A DNA stretch of 64,000 nt from Escherichia coli (lineage in GTDB: Bacteria > Pseudomonadota > Gammaproteobacteria > Enterobacterales > Enterobacteriaceae). Shown here in pieces: positions 2,619 to 53,122 of this stretch. The stretch's first letter is position 1. Each line of letters starts with the position of its first letter. Location: assembly GCF_013122565.1 (NCBI RefSeq), contig NZ_CP053258.1. The stretch is one strand, 5' to 3'. The position numbers were made by a program, and so were the translations under genes. Under the pieces are notes generated by a model, which saw nothing but the letters and a program-made list of their open reading frames with translations, was not told the DNA's origin and searched no databases.

Positions 2619-4883
2619 CTACCCGTTATCCACTGGCACGCCAAACCACTGATGATACCAACGAGGTAAAATTTGCTCCCTGAGGCTGCTAATCCGCCAG
2701 CCTTGCGCTGAAAAATTGACCGCTATTTGCCCCTGATGAGGAGTATCAAGCCACGTATAACCCTGTTGTTGATAGCGATGTTTAACTTTGCTTGAGGGCA
2801 ATCGCCATGCGTTATAGCGCGATGCCGATGCGAGTGCCACTTTTCCATTCACCCGCTGAATTAATGGTAACGATGATGAGGTATTACTGCCATGGTGAGG
2901 TACCTGAAGCAATGTTGCCTGCACTTGCTGCCAGTAACGGCTTAGCATCTTTTGTTCAGCGGGGACTTCAATATCACCGGTTAGAAGAATGCTATTCGTC
3001 CCGTCATCAACCTTAACCACACAGGAATGGTTATTTCCTTTATCGTTGCTAGCTTGTAAAGGCCAGTGCACGCTGAAACGCAATCCTTGCCATTGCCACG
3101 CTTCGCCACGCACACAGGGCTGATGATGTTCCCAGTTTAACGGACTTCTGATCCATAACATCGGCCATGTGTGCAATATTGAGTCCAGCCCTCCCCGGTG
3201 ATCCAGATGTTCATGACTCAGAATAACGCCTTCCGGTTCAAGATTATGCCAGTGGAGCCAGGGGATAATCAGTTGTTGCCCACTATCCCCTTCAGGCCAG
3301 GCCAATCCCGTGTCATAGAGAATCGCTTTGCCGTTTCTGGCTATCACCATTGCCAGCCCTTGCCCGACATCAAGCATGTACACTTGCCACTCGTCAGGTC
3401 GAGGTTTTTGCCACAGCGGCCAGCACATCAGCAAGCCTACAGCCACACACATTGCTGGCAACGTTCGCCAGGCGTTTAATCGCCATACCACCAGTAAGAA
3501 CCATGGGGAAAATGATAGCCATTGCCAACGTTCAGCAATGTTGATCCACCCTTCTGGCAAACTCTTTAACCCCCAGAAAAGTAAAGCCAAAGACCGGTCG
3601 GCAAGAAACCATAACCCTTGCTCCAGGATTAACAGCCCGCTTAAATGCACAACCATCGCGGCGAGGATCAACGGAACCGTGATAAATGTCACCAAGGGAA
3701 TTGCTAATAGATTTGCAATAAACGAGGTCAGACTAATGCCATGAAATATGACGATTTGCACGGGCATAAGCAGAAGTGTGATTCCCAGTTGCAGATGGAT
3801 GAGGGAAACAACTGCACGCAATACCGGCGGCAGTTGCCACTCAGGACAGGGAAACCACTGATACCAAAATATCAATGCCGCGACCGCAGCGGCAGAGAGC
3901 CATAAACTTTGCGAGAGAATGGCAACAGGATCCATCAGCAAAATTGCCGCCAGACAACATATCCATACATCCCAGCCACTCCACTGTCGCCCACTTAACT
4001 TAAGCATTCCCCACGTAGCAAGCGCCACAACGGTACGCAATGCAGGAGGTTGCATTCCCGTCAGCCAGGCATAAAAAGCAGCACAGCAGATTCCGCCAAT
4101 TAATGGCATTTGCCAGTGGATCCAGCGCCCAGGCAGAAAAATTTGTCCACTGCGAATGAGTCCGGCAGCCAGCAACGCCGCAAAAGCGATGTGCAATCCC
4201 GATATCGCCATTAAATGCGCCGTTCCAGTATCACGCATGATATTTTTGATTTCTTTAGGGACGGATAACCGTTCCCCCATACCTAAACCAAGAATAACCG
4301 CATTCCACATATAGGGTTGCAGCGTTGTTTGTAGTGACGCCAGATACTGTGCCCGCAGGCTACAATTCGGTTCAATGACACTTGCCTGCAGAAAGCGGCC
4401 GGTGAGCGGCTGATGCTGGGCAATGGCATAACGCTGGCTATCAAAGCCGCCATCATTAAGTTGACCATGAACTGCACGAACTTTGAGTTTCATTGACCAC
4501 AGTTGTCCGGCACAAACCGCTTGCGGAAGATATTCGCCATACAGCACAAGGCCTGGCGCAGGGAATATACGTCGACCTTGTAGATAAGTAATTTGACCGT
4601 AATGAGTGGTCATGCCGTCAGTAGCAGTGATCTCAACAATTGCATCCTGCGTCGCGCCAGTTAAGGTTTCTCCTGCCCACAAAATTTGCTTTGCTGATAA
4701 TATGCCCCAAACGAAAAACAGCAACGTCAGCGCGATATAACGGACGGTTTTAACAGGGATAAATGCCAGTACGCAGGCGAAGAGAGTCAGAAACGCAAGG
4801 GTTAATGTCCCAGGCAATTGGGGCAAAATCAGCAACGGAAAAATTCCGCAAATTATGCATACGCCGACTGTCGTTATTTTCAT
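2619..4883 (-). CDS. ycaI: ComEC/Rec2-family inner membrane protein with metallo-beta-lactamase domain
   Basis: ORF track 2619..4961 (780 aa); internal ATG at 4881-4883 (MKITTVG...) gives 754 aa; polytopic N-terminus, HEHLDHRGG metal-binding motif. Confidence 0.85.
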   Translation of the reverse strand: MKITTVGVCIICGIFPLLILPQLPGTLTLAFLTLFACVLAFIPVKTVRYIALTLLFFVWGILSAKQILWAGETLTGATQDAIVEITATDGMTTHYGQITYLQGRRIFPAPGLVLYGEYLPQAVCAGQLWSMKLKVRAVHGQLNDGGFDSQRYAIAQHQPLTGRFLQASVIEPNCSLRAQYLASLQTTLQPYMWNAVILGLGMGERLSVPKEIKNIMRDTGTAHLMAISGLHIAFAALLAAGLIRSGQIFLPGRWIHWQMPLIGGICCAAFYAWLTGMQPPALRTVVALATWGMLKLSGRQWSGWDVWICCLAAILLMDPVAILSQSLWLSAAAVAALIFWYQWFPCPEWQLPPVLRAVVSLIHLQLGITLLLMPVQIVIFHGISLTSFIANLLAIPLVTFITVPLILAAMVVHLSGLLILEQGLWFLADRSLALLFWGLKSLPEGWINIAERWQWLSFSPWFLLVVWRLNAWRTLPAMCVAVGLLMCWPLWQKPRPDEWQVYMLDVGQGLAMVIARNGKAILYDTGLAWPEGDSGQQLIIPWLHWHNLEPEGVILSHEHLDHRGGLDSILHTWPMLWIRSPLNWEHHQPCVRGEAWQWQGLRFSVHWPLQASNDKGNNHSCVVKVDDGTNSILLTGDIEVPAEQKMLSRYWQQVQATLLQVPHHGSNTSSSLPLIQRVNGKVALASASRYNAWRLPSSKVKHRYQQQGYTWLDTPHQGQIAVNFSAQGWRISSLREQILPRWYHQWFGVPVDNG

Positions 4884-46682: not shown

Positions 46683-47004
46683 TGTCAGTTATCATCTTCG
46701 GTTACGGTTATCGGCAGAACGCCCTGCCGCTGACAAGAGCTTATTTGCCTGACCAATCTACTCCATATGATAGATAACTATCATCTATCGTTGGCATCAG
46801 CGACATCTGTCACATTCCTGTCAATAGCGTTAACTGCTTCAAATTTTTGATTCATACCTGCCCCCTGGCCCCTGTCAAATGCTTGACGGCTCGCCCTAAT
46901 TCTCTAAATTGTATTTCTAGAGTTGGCGAGGTTTTGAACAGCCCCCTCTCTGACCCCGGTTTATTCCATCTTACTTGTATAAGATTTGCGAAGGATGTCG
47001 AAGC

Positions 47005-47301: not shown

Positions 47302-49248
47302 TTACTCTCGTGCCAGAGCATCTACTGGATCCAGTCGTGCCGCATTTCGTGCGGGTAACCAGCCAAATAAAATCCCGGTGACCGTCGAGCAGAGAAACGC
47401 CAGCAGCAGCGCCAACGGTGAAAAACCAATCTCCCAGCCGGGTAAGAAAAGCTGTAAGGTGAAAGCAATTAACAGTGACAGTGTTATTCCCAACGCGCCA
47501 CCGACCAGGCAAACCAGTACGGCTTCGATCAGGAACTGTTGCAAAACATCGCTTGCTCGCGCACCTACAGCCATGCGAATGCCAATTTCCCGCGTCCGCT
47601 CGGTCACTGACACCAGCATAATATTCATTACACCAATACCGCCCACCACCAGCGAAATCACCGCCACCAGCGTCAGAAACAGTTGTAAAGTACGTGTGGT
47701 CTTTTCAACAGTTTTCAAGACGCCGTCCATGTTCCAGGTAAAGAAATCCTTCTTACCGTGGCGCAGTGAAAGTAAACGCGTGAGTTGCTGTTCCGCCTCG
47801 GCGCTGTCAAATCCTTCTTTTACCCTGACAGTAATGGAGTTAAGCCACGACTGGCCCATAACTCGCCCGGACATCGTGCTGTAAGGTAGCCAGACACGCA
47901 GCACTTTACTGCTACCAAACATCGACTGTTTTTCTTCCGCCACACCAATGACTCTGGCGGGCATGTTTCCGACCAGAATCACCTCGCCAACCACATCGGC
48001 TTTATGGGGGAAAAGCTGGCGGCGAGTATTACTGTCGAGAACCACGACCTGCGCACGACCGTTCAGCTGCTCCTGATTAAAGGTGTTCCCTTCACTGAAG
48101 GTCATGCCATAGACATTAAAATAATCGCCGCTCACGCCATTGGCACTGGCAGCAACATCAACATTGTTATAACGCAGGCGCAGGTTTTGCGAGACGGCAG
48201 GTGTGGCTGAAGCGACCCACGGTTGTTTTTGGATGGCGATTAAGTCATCGTACTTCAGCGCCTGCTGATATTGCGGATCGTCATCGCCAAAATCTTTCCC
48301 GGGATAGACATCAATAGTATTCGTACCAATAGAACGAATATCCGCCAGCACCATTTGTTTGGCGGCGTCGCCCACCACGACAATGGAAACCACCGACGCA
48401 ATACCGATTATAATCCCCAGCATGGTCAGTAAAGTACGCATTTTATTCGCTGCCAGCGCCCGCCATGCCATCGTCAGCGCCTCATTAAAACCGCTGACAA
48501 ACTGCCGCCAGCCAGACGCCGTGTTGACAACAGGTTCCGTCCCGCCAGCAACATTCACTTGTTCAATGGCGGGAGGATTGCGCACAATTTCTCCGTCGCG
48601 AATTTCGATCACCCGCTCGGCCTGAGCAGCGACCTGCGGATCGTGGGTGACGATAATCACCGTATGCCCGCGATCACGCAGCTGATGCAGGATCGCCATC
48701 ACCTCTTCGCCAGAATGGCTGTCCAGTGCGCCGGTCGGTTCATCGGCAAGAATTACCTGACCGCCGTTCATCAATGCCCGCGCGATGCTGACGCGCTGTT
48801 GCTGACCACCCGAAAGCTGTGCCGGATAATACTCTGTACGGTCTTCCAGCCCCAGTCGTTGCAGCAACTCCTGGGCGCGAAGCAGCCGCTGTTTCCGCTC
48901 AAGACCAGCATAGACGGCAGGTACTTCAACGTTCTGCTCGGCGGTTAAATGTGAAAGCAAATGGTAACGCTGGAAAATAAAGCCGAAATGCTCGCGGCGC
49001 AGTTGTGCCAGCTCATCGGCGTCCAGCGTGGCAACATCCTGACCGGCTACGCGATAGGTGCCGCTGGTGGCCTTATCCAGGCAGCCGAGAATATTCATCA
49101 GGGTCGATTTACCGGAACCCGAAGCGCCGACAATCGCTACCATCTCACCGGCATAAATATCGAGGGTGATGCCCTTCAGCACCTCAACCTGCTCATCACC
49201 GGCAGGATAGCTGCGACGAATATCCTTTAATTCGAGCAAGGGTGTCAT
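47302..49248 (-). CDS. macB: Macrolide ABC exporter, fused ATPase/permease
   Basis: 648 aa; N-terminal NBD ([18 protein letters not shown]), C-terminal FtsX-like permease; start overlaps macA stop. Confidence 0.95.
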
Positions 49249-50360
49249 TGCGCAGCTCCTGGTTTGGCCTCACCAATCACCACTTCATCGCCCGCTTCCA
49301 GCCCTTTGACAATCTCAACATCGGTATCGTTACGTGCGCCAATCGTCACTTCACGCTCGCGTGTTTCACCATTACGCAACAATTTGACTTTATAACGATT
49401 ATCGCCAACCGGATCGCCTAACGCCGACAGAGGGATCGTCAGCACATTTTTCACATCGGTGAGCTGAATATGCACTTGCGCAGTCATATCCAGCCGCAGC
49501 AAACCATTGGGGTTGGGGACTTCAAAACGGGCGTAATAGAAAATAGCGTCGTTAACCTTTTCCGGCGTCGGTAGTACATCCTTGATTTGCCCCTCGTAGC
49601 GCGTCAGTGGATCGCCAAGTACCGTAAACCAGGCTTTTTGCCCCGGCTTCAGGTGGATTACATCTGCTTCAGAAACCTGCGCTTTTACCAGCATGGTGCT
49701 CATATCTGCCAGCGTCAGAATGTTCGGTGCTTGTTGTGCGGCAATCACCGTCTGGCCTTGCAGAGTGGTGATTTGCGTGACTTCCCCGGCCATCGGGGCA
49801 ACGATGCGAGTGTAATCGAGATTGGTTTTAGCCGTATCGAGAGAAGCCTGATTGCGCTTGATTTGCGCGTCAATGGTGCCAATTTGCGCCTGTTTCACAG
49901 CCATCTCCGTCGCGGCGGTGTCGAGATCCTGCTGTGAAACCGCCTGCGTTTGTGCAAGACGTTGCTGACGGGAATATGTCACCCGCGCCAGTTTCAGCTC
50001 CGCTTCCGCCTGCTGCCGCTGCGCGCGTAGCTCCATCAGCGTTGCTTCCACCTCCTTGATCTGGTTTTCAGCCTGTTCAGGATCAATAACCCCTAAAAGC
50101 TGGTCTTTTTTAACTTTATCGCCAATCGCCACCGACAGCGTTTTCAACTGACCGCTGACCTGCGCGCCCACGTCAACCTTACGCAGCGCGTCCAGCTTTC
50201 CGGTCGCCAGCACGCTTTGCTGTAAATCACCGGGGCGCACAATCAGCGTCTGATAAGTCGGAACGGGTGCGTTAAGAATTCTCCATAACGTAATCAGTCC
50301 GGCGATGACTATCACCAGCGCAATAACGTAACGCTTCTTCACGGTTTTCCGCTTTTTCAT
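49245..50360 (-). CDS. macA: Macrolide efflux membrane fusion protein
   Basis: ORF track 49245..50387; ATG at 50358-50360 ([18 protein letters not shown]...) gives 371 aa. Confidence 0.93.
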
Positions 50361-50474
50361 AAATATTCTGAATACTCCATATGCCAATCCGGGTCATTAA
50401 CTTCAACGAAATATCAACAAAACCCTAAAATTTACGTTAGTAATCACACTATTGATGTTTGGTTAAGATACGCA

Positions 50475-51467
50475 ATGATGAAATCGACGTCATGTACAAC
50501 CATTGATTTCATGAATATGTCGCAGCTAACTGAACGGACCTTTACGCCATCTGAATCTCGCAGCAGCCTGTCACTTTTTCTTAGTCTGGCACGTGGACAG
50601 TGTCGGCCGGGTAAATTCTGGCATCGCCGTAGTTTTCGCCAGAAATTTTTGCTGCGCTCGTTGATTATGCCGCGTTTAAGCGTTGAGTGGATGAACGAAC
50701 TTTCACACTGGCCTAATCTCAATGTGTTGTTAACGCGCCAGCCGCGACTGCCTGTACGTCTGCATCGCCCTTACCTTGCGGCGAATCTTAGCCGTAAGCA
50801 ATTGCTGGAGGCGTTACGTTACCATTATGCGTTACTCCGCGGGTGTATGTCGGCGGAAGAATTCAGCTTATATTTGAATACCCCCGGGCTGCAACTGGTG
50901 AAGCTGGAAGGCAAAAACGGCGAGCAGTTCACGCTTGAGCTGACCATGATGATCTCAATGGATAAAGAAGGTGACAGCACAATCCTGTTCCGCAACAGCG
51001 AAGGTATTCCTCTGGCAGAGATCACGTTTACCCTGTGTGAATATCAGGGGAAAAGAACGATGTTTATTGGCGGACTGCAAGGCGCAAAATGGGAAATCCC
51101 ACATCAGGAAATCCAGAATGCGACGAAAGCCTGCCACGGGCTATTTCCCAAACGCCTCGTGATGGAAGCGGCCTGTCTGTTTGCCCAACGTTTGCAGGTA
51201 GAGCAGATTATTGCCGTCAGCAATGAAACGCATATTTACCGCAGCCTGCGTTATCGCGATAAAGAAGGCAAGATCCATGCCGATTACAACGCTTTCTGGG
51301 AATCGGTTGGCGGCGTATGTGATGCTGAACGCCATTACCGCCTTCCAGCACAGATAGCACGAAAAGAGATTGCCGAAATCGCCAGTAAAAAACGGGCTGA
51401 ATACCGTCGGCGCTATGAGATGCTCGACGCTATTCAGCCACAAATGGCCACGATGTTTCGCGGTTAA
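50475..51467 (+). CDS. ybjX: VirK-like protein (DUF535 family)
   Basis: 330 aa ORF; family assignment is from recall of E. coli YbjX / Salmonella VirK, not a search; 3' end overlaps the convergent ybjD by 4 nt. Confidence 0.75.
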   Translation: MMKSTSCTTIDFMNMSQLTERTFTPSESRSSLSLFLSLARGQCRPGKFWHRRSFRQKFLLRSLIMPRLSVEWMNELSHWPNLNVLLTRQPRLPVRLHRPYLAANLSRKQLLEALRYHYALLRGCMSAEEFSLYLNTPGLQLVKLEGKNGEQFTLELTMMISMDKEGDSTILFRNSEGIPLAEITFTLCEYQGKRTMFIGGLQGAKWEIPHQEIQNATKACHGLFPKRLVMEAACLFAQRLQVEQIIAVSNETHIYRSLRYRDKEGKIHADYNAFWESVGGVCDAERHYRLPAQIARKEIAEIASKKRAEYRRRYEMLDAIQPQMATMFRG

Positions 51468-53122
51468 TCCGCGCGACCGCGCGCCAGCCACAGCACGCGT
51501 GAGAACATTTTTTTCAGCAGCGTCGGTACGGAGTCCACACCACGACGTCCGGCCTCCATTGCCACTTCAATGGCAAGATCGGGTTTGGAAGAGCGATGGA
51601 TCGCTTTCGAGATAATTTTGCGCAGATTCATCGGTACATTTTCCGGGATTTGCGCCACGCGGTGGAACACATCGGAAAATCCCTGGCGATACATAAAATG
51701 TTCCATATCCAGCGCCGGTAACGCCGTTAAATGTTCTCGTTCGGCTTCCCGATCATTATTCAACAGGCTGCGTACCGTAGCGGCATATTTCTTCCCTGCT
51801 TCATCGCCATCGACCAGTACATGCCATTCAATCCCCATTCGCCGGGCAAATTTAACCAGTGGCTTTAGCCCGGACTGGGCAAACTCAATGACCTTGATCC
51901 CTTCGGCATCAAAATGATGTCCGCACTGACGCGCCAGTTCATTTATAACCCAGGTTTCCGTTTCCCCTTCCACCAGCAACCAGCAGCGAGCAAACAGCGA
52001 TGACGGACGATTAAAACGAATGTGAAAAGAGATGCGGCGGCTGTCTTCGGTGCTCAAGCCACTTGGCCCCAGACGCCAGGCGGCAACACGAGAAGATTCA
52101 CGCACCAGGCGGCAAACATGTTCCACTGGAGTTAACGAAAGCAGCTCGCCAGAGTTGGTGGTAGCAATACGTTGTAAAGGCAAAAGATTCAACAGATGCC
52201 AGGCAACTGAAAGCATAATGGGGTGTAAACGCGTTTCTGGATCTTCGATCAGCAACAATGGACGGGCGTCTTTATCCAGTCGCAATGTGCCTTTTGCCTG
52301 CAATAAAGTAGCAAACAGGCCGAGCAAAATAACCCGATACGAGCGCCCTCCAGGTCGGTCAATCATCCGGTTGATGATGTCCAGATAGCGCCAGCTTCGT
52401 TGCTCATTGCTGGCCCGCCGCCGCATTAAACGATATCGCGCCTGTCCAGCCCCCTGCTCAGAGAAATAATGCTCAAGCAACTGCACCATTGCGGAAAGTC
52501 CCTGACGAATCTGTCCATCAGAGAGATTTTGCGGATGTGAGGACAACTCACGGGCGAGGAAATCGAGCTGGCGCGCGGTGACTTCCACATTGGGGACATT
52601 TGGCACCGTGCCGTTACGAATACGGCGCATAAAACGGGCATCACGCAAGCGCAGCACCGGCATTAAACGCACCAGATGGCGTGCCTGATCGTTAATATCC
52701 TCAACATCAATCGGATGTCCGTCTTTATCGAGAAAACTGCGCAGTGTCATCACGCTGCCGTCTTCCGCACTCTCCCCTTCCAGACGATAAAAAATACGGT
52801 GATAGCCATCGGTGCATGGCGTCCAGCACGCTTCCAGCGGTCGATAGCGGCGAACCCGATGTCGGCCTGGCAGCGATTCGCGGAAGGTCAAAATAATATG
52901 CAGATGATGTTCCCGACCGTTGATATCTCCCGGCGGGAACCAGAAATCGTCGCGCTCAAAATGGTAGAGATCTGATTCTGGCGATAGCAGCAGGGTTAAG
53001 GCGTCCAGCAAGCTGGATTTACCCCACGCGTTCTCCCCAATCAGGACGTTGTTTTGTTCCAGCATCAACGACAAACGGTTGATACCGCGAAAACCCACAA
53101 TTTCAACGCGCTCAAGAATCAT
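51464..53122 (-). CDS. ybjD: OLD-family protein: N-terminal ABC-type ATPase plus C-terminal Toprim nuclease-like domain
   Basis: 552 aa; Walker A GENAWGKSS near the N-terminus, acidic LLVEGETE Toprim-like motif in the C-terminal third. Confidence 0.85.
   Translation of the reverse strand: MILERVEIVGFRGINRLSLMLEQNNVLIGENAWGKSSLLDALTLLLSPESDLYHFERDDFWFPPGDINGREHHLHIILTFRESLPGRHRVRRYRPLEACWTPCTDGYHRIFYRLEGESAEDGSVMTLRSFLDKDGHPIDVEDINDQARHLVRLMPVLRLRDARFMRRIRNGTVPNVPNVEVTARQLDFLARELSSHPQNLSDGQIRQGLSAMVQLLEHYFSEQGAGQARYRLMRRRASNEQRSWRYLDIINRMIDRPGGRSYRVILLGLFATLLQAKGTLRLDKDARPLLLIEDPETRLHPIMLSVAWHLLNLLPLQRIATTNSGELLSLTPVEHVCRLVRESSRVAAWRLGPSGLSTEDSRRISFHIRFNRPSSLFARCWLLVEGETETWVINELARQCGHHFDAEGIKVIEFAQSGLKPLVKFARRMGIEWHVLVDGDEAGKKYAATVRSLLNNDREAEREHLTALPALDMEHFMYRQGFSDVFHRVAQIPENVPMNLRKIISKAIHRSSKPDLAIEVAMEAGRRGVDSVPTLLKKMFSRVLWLARGRAD

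Follow-up and report, generated by a model that had tools for sequence, protein, structure and literature searches.

The window analysed here, a stretch of 64,000 nucleotides from Escherichia coli (contig NZ_CP053258.1 of RefSeq assembly GCF_013122565.1), carries at ~44-57 kb a chromosomal block with the gene order clpA-clpS-cspD / macB-macA / ybjX / ybjD / aqpZ-lysO-hcp. The subject of this analysis is ybjX, together with its control region and the two genes that flank it. Reading of the window gives an uninterrupted open reading frame (ORF) of 330 aa at 50475..51467 on the + strand, with the same extent as MG1655 b0877 (993 nt, 330 aa, gap to macA of 114 bp). Its product matches the Pfam family DUF535 (PF04393) with 342 bits (E=3e-102) over profile positions 2-280 of 281, the gathering cut-off being 27 bits. 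This full-length profile match above the gathering score places the protein in the DUF535 / VirK-YbjX family, and all the family motifs are present: HRPY, HY, KEGE, IGGLQG, ATK..GL.PK, AVSN, ADY..FW and SKKR.EYRRRY.

Of 5,426 complete E. coli genomes, 5,424 matched a 4-kb query around ybjX (95-99.4% identity), with macB, macA, ybjX and ybjD annotated throughout; the region is the E. coli core-genome gene ybjX plus its control region. The original prediction had described a VirK-like ybjX lying between the macAB efflux operon and ybjD, divergent from the former and converging on the latter with overlapping stop codons. The identity is borne out by the DUF535 match, the RefSeq names and the distribution among E. 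coli genomes, and the arrangement, including a 4-nt stop overlap, by the coordinates (Table 1). The macAB genes form an ABC-type (ATP-binding cassette) tripartite efflux operon at 47302..50360 on the - strand, as judged from Pfam domains and RefSeq names. The ybjX gene of Shigella flexneri and of E. coli K-12 (b0877) is the same gene with the same neighbours as in the window (Coluccia et al. 2025, PMC12562796; Mendoza-Vargas et al. 2009, PMC2760140), and no functional difference was found between them and the window; the PhoP boxes, the -10 hexamer, both transcription start site (TSS) positions and both start codons are identical in K-12. Thirteen loci for comparison came from one scan of genome contigs, Salmonella not being among them, and loci of Salmonella, Kluyvera and C. 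freundii were added through protein look-ups. The arrangement around ybjX is syntenic in Salmonella, Citrobacter, Kluyvera and two further Enterobacteriaceae.

Table 1. Features of the ybjX locus in window coordinates.
Feature	Position	Strand	Description and evidence
macB	47302-49248	-	ABC ATPase; Pfam MacB_PCD, ABC_tran and FtsX; RefSeq name
macA	49245-50360 (ATG at 50360)	-	HlyD-type adaptor; Pfam HlyD_D23; divergent from ybjX
Distal PhoP box	50403..50419	-	TGTTGA-TATTT-CGTTGA; inverted with respect to ybjX; lies 30 nt upstream of the proximal box
macA TSS (A)	50433	-	73 nt upstream of macA ATG; Shigella primer extension mapped onto the window
Proximal PhoP box	50450..50466	+	TATTGA-TGTTT-GGTTAA; half-sites match the Salmonella box; conserved in the 10-species alignment and in Salmonella and Citrobacter loci
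Legacy 'N-terminal extension'	50475..50510	+	36 nt, non-coding; holds the ybjX -10 hexamer, the TSS and the 18-nt 5' untranslated region
Peptide of the legacy extension in the 330-aa form			MMKSTSCTTIDF
ybjX -10 hexamer	50479..50484	+	TGAAAT; T..AAT invariant across 10 species
ybjX TSS (T)	50493	+	Shigella primer extension and K-12 ybjXp; same base in K-12
ybjX coding sequence	50511..51467	+	318 aa from ATG 50511; RefSeq annotation, published start-codon mutagenesis (PMC12562796), DUF535, dN/dS (ratio of non-synonymous to synonymous substitution rates) 0.06-0.07
ybjX alternative start	ATG 50517	+	316 aa; more widely conserved, invariant in 10 species
Candidate intrinsic ybjD terminator	51441..51387	-	23 nt past the ybjD stop, inside the ybjX 3' coding end
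Overlapping stops TTAA	51464..51467		ybjX TAA 51465-51467; ybjD TAA (-) 51464-51466; 4-nt ORF overlap
ybjX stop TAA	51465-51467	+	Direct reading
ybjD (proposed name oldB)	51464..53122	-	Class 1 OLD-family ATPase/Toprim; convergent with ybjX

The 330-aa form of YbjX is an annotation artefact. In other strains, the Prokaryotic Genome Annotation Pipeline (PGAP) of RefSeq places the start 36 nt further in, at the equivalent of window 50511, which gives 318 aa. A genome-wide study of TSSs in K-12 located ybjXp at +18 of the annotated ATG and concluded that codon 13 is the start of translation, in line with every orthologue (PMC2760140). Primer extension in Shigella flexneri likewise identified a T located 18 bp downstream of the annotated ATG, and the ATGs of Met13 and Met15 lie at +19 and +25 of that transcript; no protein was produced when both codons were mutated, and either single mutant kept the protein (PMC12562796). 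The positions of these two ATGs in the transcript set the TSS at window 50493. The annotated ATG at 50475, which sits between the proximal PhoP box and the -10 hexamer, is thus upstream of the transcript, and the 330-aa form is not encodable by this mRNA.

Comparative data agree with these experiments. An alignment of the region from 10 species (Escherichia spp., Citrobacter spp. and two further Enterobacteriaceae) was inspected for start codons: ATG 50517 is the only invariant one, position 50511 is ATG in Escherichia only and TTG in Citrobacter, and E. albertii has lost ATG 50475, which reads ATA there. The 12 codons of the 'extension' are without protein-level conservation, and the MSQLTE that follows them is conserved. 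K-12 and the window differ at 13 nucleotides over the old ORF, three of them within its first 36 nt, where all three would be non-synonymous; these account for three of the six amino-acid differences and fall in the untranslated part. Translation of ybjX starts at ATG 50511 or 50517 (codon 13 or 15 of the old ORF), so that the non-coding gap to macA is 150 bp or 156 bp. The mRNA leader is 18-24 nt long and has no Shine-Dalgarno sequence.

That the ORF from ATG 50475 is nevertheless a real protein, as annotated in MG1655, is hardly credible. The frame is open from 50475, the extension is also open in frame in Citrobacter, a second, PhoP-independent TSS has been described in Salmonella (PMC3335776), and the MG1655 reference still carries the start codon that was found wrong in 2009 and again in 2025. 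All of this is outweighed by TSSs downstream of ATG 50475 in both K-12 and Shigella, the loss of protein in the M13L/M15L double mutant (PMC12562796), the missing ATG in E. albertii, an extension that is not kept as protein and concentrates non-synonymous differences from K-12, and the start of PGAP and orthologous proteins at codon 13 or 15. The coordinates first given for the gene therefore hold as an ORF and equal the MG1655 annotation, while their start codon is wrong by 36-42 nt; the intergenic region of 114 bp that was derived from it gives way to one of 150-156 bp on the grounds of TSS, mutagenesis and alignment. Analyses of the macA-ybjX intergenic region should take the larger value, with the ybjX promoter lying partly inside the old ORF.

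The control region contains two PhoP boxes. The proximal one is in direct orientation at the -35 position and ends exactly 12 nt before the -10 hexamer, a distance that defines the PhoP-activated architectures I and II (PMC3335776), and both of its half-sites are identical to those of the footprinted Salmonella ybjX box GTATTGACGATTGGTTAAT (PMC3335776). The distal one is the positional homologue of the second Salmonella box TTGTTTAGATACGGTTTAC, also inverted and 30 nt upstream, mutation of which lowers expression >8-fold (PMC3335776). The layout of a direct proximal box and an inverted distal box is shared with ybjX (somA) of Salmonella enterica, an architecture II promoter (Zwir et al. 2012, PMC3335776), although the distal box is weaker in E. 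coli (TGTTGA..CGTTGA) than in Salmonella (TGTTTA..GGTTTA). The ybjX promoter has no usable -35.

The core of the distal box, read as T.AAC......T.AAC on the + strand, is invariant in 10 of the 10 aligned species. Both boxes were recovered in the same layout in all five non-Escherichia loci that carry the two of them, with a gap of 30 nt in Salmonella, Citrobacter R56, RIT691 and Enterobacteriaceae 89, and of 29 nt in C. freundii; the box pattern did not find the two-box layout in Kluyvera. The box, its 12-nt distance to the -10 hexamer and the 29-30-nt box spacing are conserved in every genus examined except Kluyvera. In the 64 kb of the window, the joint pattern matches only these two sites, a result that speaks for uniqueness in the window and not for independent significance, since the pattern was written post hoc from the sites themselves. 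PhoP sites in the E. coli ybjX promoter had been catalogued computationally in 2010 (PMC2908699).

Experiments on the promoter come from Shigella and Salmonella. In Shigella, ybjX expression requires phoP, phoQ and low Mg2+, a change of the -10 hexamer from TGAAAT to CGAATT abolishes promoter activity, and mutation of the AT of the first half-site reduces expression (PMC12562796). In Salmonella, PhoP control was established by S1 mapping and footprints, and both boxes were footprinted and mutated (PMC3335776). By analogy with these relatives, ybjX transcription in the present strain is expected to depend on PhoP/PhoQ and low Mg2+. The gene would be transcribed from a weak sigma-70 promoter dependent on phosphorylated PhoP, which would bind the proximal box at the -35 position and the inverted box 30 nt upstream; transcription would begin at T 50493, and translation would follow from ATG 50511 or 50517 after a leader of 18-24 nt.

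The same region serves macAB. In Shigella, the macA transcript starts at an A located 73 nt upstream of its ATG, and the -35 regions of macA and ybjX overlap (PMC12562796); in the window the two divergent start sites are 59 bp apart (58 in PMC12562796). The proximal PhoP box occupies -17 to -33 of the macA promoter, where its GGTTAA half, read as TTAACC, is the best macA -35 candidate, and the distal box occupies +15 to +31 of the macA transcript. This geometry implies overlapping RNA polymerase footprints at the two promoters and an effect of PhoP, whichever box it occupies, on the initiation or early elongation of macA transcription. The macA-ybjX region would then work as a single bidirectional, PhoP-sensitive switch in which occupancy at one promoter affects the other. 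In Salmonella, PhoP binds upstream of macA; the first report (2006) was of macAB repression, and chromosomal fusions showed PhoP-dependent macAB induction by low Mg2+, acid pH and peptide C18G (PMC7446830, PMC3809562).

Shared regulation with macAB, which had been called plausible with the caveat that nothing in the sequence proves it, is thus built into the sequence by two PhoP boxes and back-to-back promoters, and PhoP control has been demonstrated in Shigella and Salmonella; the caveat undersells the boxes. The promoter mapping proposed as a check was published in 2025 (PMC12562796).

An exhaustive profile search gave 1,678 cluster representatives (E<=0.001). When 114 diverse members are aligned, no column is invariant, and 14 positions are conserved in >=90% of them (in the 316-aa numbering used for YbjX residues: R84, Y86, H103, E151, G152, G185, Q188, G189, T203, G208, P211, Y257, W261 and R293). 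These fall in the motifs HRPY, HY, KEGE, IGGLQG, ATK..GL.PK, ADY..FW and the basic helix SKKR.EYRRRY, AVSN being a majority-consensus motif. The AlphaFold2 model of YbjX built from the 114-member alignment has a mean predicted local distance difference test (pLDDT) of 94.8 and a predicted TM-score (pTM) of 0.92. The N-terminal region, helical and specific to the family, extends to ~residue 120; it is followed by a core in which helices flank an antiparallel sheet of five strands and a short sixth one, and by a long C-terminal helix. The core has the mixed beta-sheet flanked by helices of the GNAT fold. The top Foldseek hit was the acetyl-CoA-binding, non-catalytic C-terminal domain of Mycobacterium tuberculosis ICL2, followed by NatD, with low TM-scores (0.25-0.33 on the query). 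A GNAT-like fold was assigned to YbjX with VAST in the 2025 Shigella paper (PMC12562796), and the predicted model and its Foldseek matches independently reproduce that assignment. Relative to the GNAT superfamily, YbjX has an extra N-terminal helical region of ~120 residues and the long C-terminal helix, with 2-16% identity and no profile-level match. Searches of YbjX against PDB sequences gave no match at E<=10, and NCBIfam has no model that matches it.

YbjX is a soluble protein of ~36 kDa, basic in composition (46 K+R against 32 D+E), with neither a hydrophobic segment (maximum 19-residue Kyte-Doolittle window 1.02) nor a signal peptide. The lack of a hydrophobic segment fits the cytoplasmic fractionation observed in Shigella and argues against outer-membrane or periplasmic roles. 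Such roles, in which YbjX would be an envelope protein (either an outer-membrane protein or a chaperone of the periplasm) acting directly on the outer membrane or on autotransporters, were proposed for YbjX of avian pathogenic E. coli and for VirK of enteroaggregative E. coli (EAEC) and Klebsiella. The phenotypes are all envelope-related, and the literature holds a periplasmic EAEC VirK (PMC12562796) and an outer-membrane Klebsiella VirK (PMC13109725). An envelope location of YbjX is improbable all the same, given the absent signal peptide and hydrophobic segment, the confident globular alpha/beta/alpha model with a cytoplasmic-enzyme fold, and the recovery of Shigella YbjX-His and VirK-His in the cytoplasmic fraction, with controls (PMC12562796).

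A serious alternative, though a tentative one, is that the GNAT-like core is non-catalytic and that YbjX is a sensor or adaptor for acyl-CoA, or another ligand, that regulates a partner in the manner of the M. tuberculosis ICL2 domain. That domain, which forms the GNAT-like C-terminal part of isocitrate lyase 2, binds acetyl-CoA allosterically. Among the 114 members none matches an acetyltransferase family by sequence, a canonical CoA pyrophosphate loop is not evident, and lipid A was unchanged in the work on the Klebsiella paralogue (PMC13109725), all of which would agree with such a sensor. On the other hand, the TM-score with ICL2 is low (0.25) and NatD-type enzymes score equally, and the 14 conserved positions, clustered in a few motifs, look like an active or binding site, which fits either option.

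The VirK paralogues give the functional context. VirK, encoded on the Shigella virulence plasmid (shf-rfbU-virK-msbB2) and in Salmonella and Klebsiella, belongs to the same Pfam family, is PhoP-activated and has a superimposable predicted fold, with ~34% identity to YbjX. It was horizontally acquired and lies in an operon for modification of lipopolysaccharide (LPS), whereas ybjX is ancestral and lies beside macAB. A link of the VirK family to envelope stress and antimicrobial peptides has support in the literature: ybjX and virK mutants of Salmonella are polymyxin-sensitive, and in Shigella the two genes maintain outer-membrane impermeability (PMC12562796). In Shigella, a mutant lacking both ybjX and virK shows high sensitivity to novobiocin and polymyxin B, elicits more interleukin-8 (IL-8) and IL-1beta and has poor survival in macrophages, and the virK mutant is complemented by over-expressed YbjX (PMC12562796). 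The two genes differ in that a virK single mutant has phenotypes and a ybjX single mutant has none (PMC12562796).

At its 3' end ybjX converges on ybjD, whose product contains Pfam DUF2813/AAA_15 ATPase and OLD-like_TOPRIM domains and is matched by the GajA and Old models of PADLOC. An ABC-type ATPase at the N-terminus, a Toprim domain at the C-terminus and a stand-alone gene characterise ybjD/oldB as a class 1 OLD protein. The only study of ybjD (2026) regards it as a stand-alone class 1 OLD protein with an unlikely link to ybjX, and reports that over-expression of YbjD is cytotoxic (PMC13261556). YbjX itself had no match among the PADLOC defence models, so that there is no evidence of YbjX as a defence partner.

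The 4-nt stop overlap, in the form of TTAA, CTAA or CTAG, was found at every locus recovered, namely in Escherichia spp., three Citrobacter sp., C. freundii, Salmonella, Kluyvera and two more distant Enterobacteriaceae. The C-terminus of YbjX is variable across these loci (MFRG, IFKR, MVQR, MFHH), and that of YbjD always ends in RGRAD or RGKAD. A palindrome over the stops (CGCGG-TTAAT-CCGCG, 51456-51470) is not maintained in other Escherichia and is probably incidental. The terminator scan found no terminator-like element after ybjX on the + strand, and the fold of the downstream sequence was no better than that of shuffles (z=-0.84).

For ybjD, a candidate intrinsic terminator was identified within ybjX (Table 1). 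It has a 14-bp interrupted stem (GGCUGAAUA.CGUCG / CGACG.UAUUCAGCC) followed by G and UUUUUU, folds with -51.5 kcal/mol (z=-2.8), was partly caught by the terminator scan and is identical in K-12. The hairpin falls in the codons for the conserved C-terminal helix of YbjX (SKKRAEYRRRYEMLDAIQ). It was not recovered in the RNAalifold consensus of 12 loci, its stem is not maintained outside Escherichia, and Citrobacter spp., Kluyvera and RIT691 show an interrupted U-run, the interruption occurring wherever AAGAAG codes for KK. As far as sequence can tell, the hairpin may serve as a ybjD terminator at the level of Escherichia only.

Tight convergent packing could in principle couple the two genes, an unterminated PhoP-induced ybjX transcript running antisense to ybjD and lowering its expression, or the reverse. 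That no fewer than five genera retain the overlap, Kluyvera despite its tandem duplication, would be in keeping with this, as would the + strand without a terminator-like site after ybjX, the good terminator-like hairpin for ybjD within ybjX, and the cytotoxicity of over-expressed YbjD (PMC13261556). Such coupling appears unlikely, however. The overlap is explained by selection on both C-termini (RGRAD/RGKAD in YbjD), and the hairpin and U-run are not conserved beyond Escherichia, the U-run following from conserved KK codons. Untranslated antisense RNA is normally stopped by Rho. The authors of the ybjD study also considered the two genes unrelated (PMC13261556). The convergent stop overlap would then be an inherited compact arrangement without a demonstrated regulatory role.

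A broader version treats macA-ybjX-ybjD as one PhoP-driven unit of transcriptional interference acting at both its 5' and 3' ends. At the 5' end, the macAB and ybjX promoters would exclude each other through PhoP on the boxes they share; at the 3' end, ybjX transcripts running antisense through ybjD/oldB would damp a cytotoxic OLD-family defence protein during envelope stress, and this would be why the stop overlap and the embedded ybjD terminator are conserved. We consider this very unlikely.

The explanation we favour, with a probability of about 0.8 for the whole, is that ybjX is a core-genome gene that shares a PhoP-controlled region with macAB and encodes a cytoplasmic GNAT-like protein, its overlap with ybjD being a mere compact arrangement. 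Based on the predicted model, YbjX is most likely a cytoplasmic, acyl-donor-binding GNAT-type protein acting in outer-membrane/LPS biogenesis: its GNAT-type core would bind acyl-CoA or a similar acyl donor in the cytoplasm, and the protein would modify or regulate a cytoplasmic step of that pathway. If this is true, the leaky, polymyxin-sensitive outer membrane that follows loss of ybjX and virK would be explained by the action of YbjX in outer-membrane/LPS biogenesis.

Several observations weigh against this explanation. None of the 114 DUF535 members has a Pfam acetyltransferase (Acetyltransf_*) match, even at E<=1, and by inspection neither of the conserved loops IGGLQG and ATK..GL.PK fits the CoA loop Q/R-x-x-G-x-G/A (beta4-alpha3). 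The DUF535 literature reports no enzymatic activity or ligand for any member. Deletion of ybjX alone in Shigella had no phenotype (PMC12562796), and the Klebsiella DUF535 paralogue was reported in the outer membrane, with lipid A unchanged (PMC13109725). The promoter experiments all come from relatives of this strain, and the effect of PhoP on macAB is contradictory, with repression reported in 2006 and activation later (PMC7446830). Finally, the main macA TSS of Salmonella lies 504 nt upstream of the ATG, inside ybjX (PMC7446830), so that the geometry seen in E. coli and Shigella may not generalise.

The Salmonella locus (L015 3855-4409) has a plausible - strand macA promoter, TTTCAA-18-CATACT, inside ybjX. 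In the E. coli counterpart (window 50855-50925), CATACT is replaced by GGGGGT; as the hexamer is not conserved, the long antisense leader of macA is probably a Salmonella-specific feature. Another promoter-like site inside ybjX and directed toward macA (CCGACA-18-CATAAT, 50853..50824 on the - strand, 9/12 match) was discarded: shuffles give an expectation of 1.6 such sites, and a single one was found.

YbjX is by far the most divergent and, on these comparisons, the fastest-evolving protein of an otherwise well-conserved syntenic block. The E. coli and Salmonella proteins are only 58% identical (window 50517-51464 against L015), compared with 83-94% for CspD, MacB, MacA and YbjD, while the Salmonella locus retains the same macBA / ybjX / ybjD synteny and the 4-nt stop overlap. 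Among Escherichia and Citrobacter, the dN/dS of YbjX is 0.06-0.07 against 0.01-0.04 for its neighbours, values that clearly point to purifying selection, 2-7 times weaker than on the neighbours.

The essentials of this locus are already published: the TSS and the mis-annotated start (2009, 2025), the PhoP boxes (2010, 2012, 2025), the overlapping macA/ybjX promoters, GNAT-like fold, cytoplasmic location and envelope phenotypes (2025), PhoP control of macAB (2006, 2020) and ybjD as an OLD protein (2026). Minor additions are the window coordinates, the conservation of the second box and of the spacing across genera, the placement of the boxes relative to the macA start, the conservation of the stop overlap, the embedded ybjD terminator candidate and the absence of a GNAT signal at the sequence level. 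YbjX and VirK aid tolerance of polymyxin and antimicrobial peptides in several pathogens, which is why a defined substrate would be of value; the window gives no new handle on it, and beyond annotation bookkeeping its significance is small.

Other DUF535 genes were observed in the loci compared. In Kluyvera, a tandem pair (L016 4001-4954 and 5129-6085) lies between macA and ybjD, its copies sharing 67% and 50% identity with E. coli YbjX; the 4-nt overlap with ybjD is kept by the second copy. A paralogue of 36% identity (L019 1-4996, L020 2-2493) is located ~465 nt downstream of a resistance-nodulation-division (RND) efflux operon (adaptor plus ACR_tran) and adjoins speD/speE-like genes, which makes it a second, independent example of the family next to an efflux pump. 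One of 33% identity (L021, L022) is flanked by IS1-type (insertion sequence) and other transposase genes, suggesting mobile copies of the family. The distant DUF535 neighbourhoods are heterogeneous (RND pump, IS elements, CCA-adding enzyme), with no recurrent lipid A gene among them, and the ORF lists of the high-GC Massilia loci were uninformative.

Minor differences were also seen in the flanking genes. The Salmonella locus (L015 6606-6807) has no aqpZ between ybjD and lysO, and aqpZ is present only as fragments in Escherichia sp. MOD1-EC7003 (L003 7021-7236). The macA gene of E. albertii (L005 2730-3850) matches as two pieces abutting at 3260-3263, which may be a frameshift. Between clpS and cspD, RefSeq annotates in a matching strain (L001 582-656) the 24-aa small protein YljB on the - strand, which would correspond to approximately 46780-46860 of the window.

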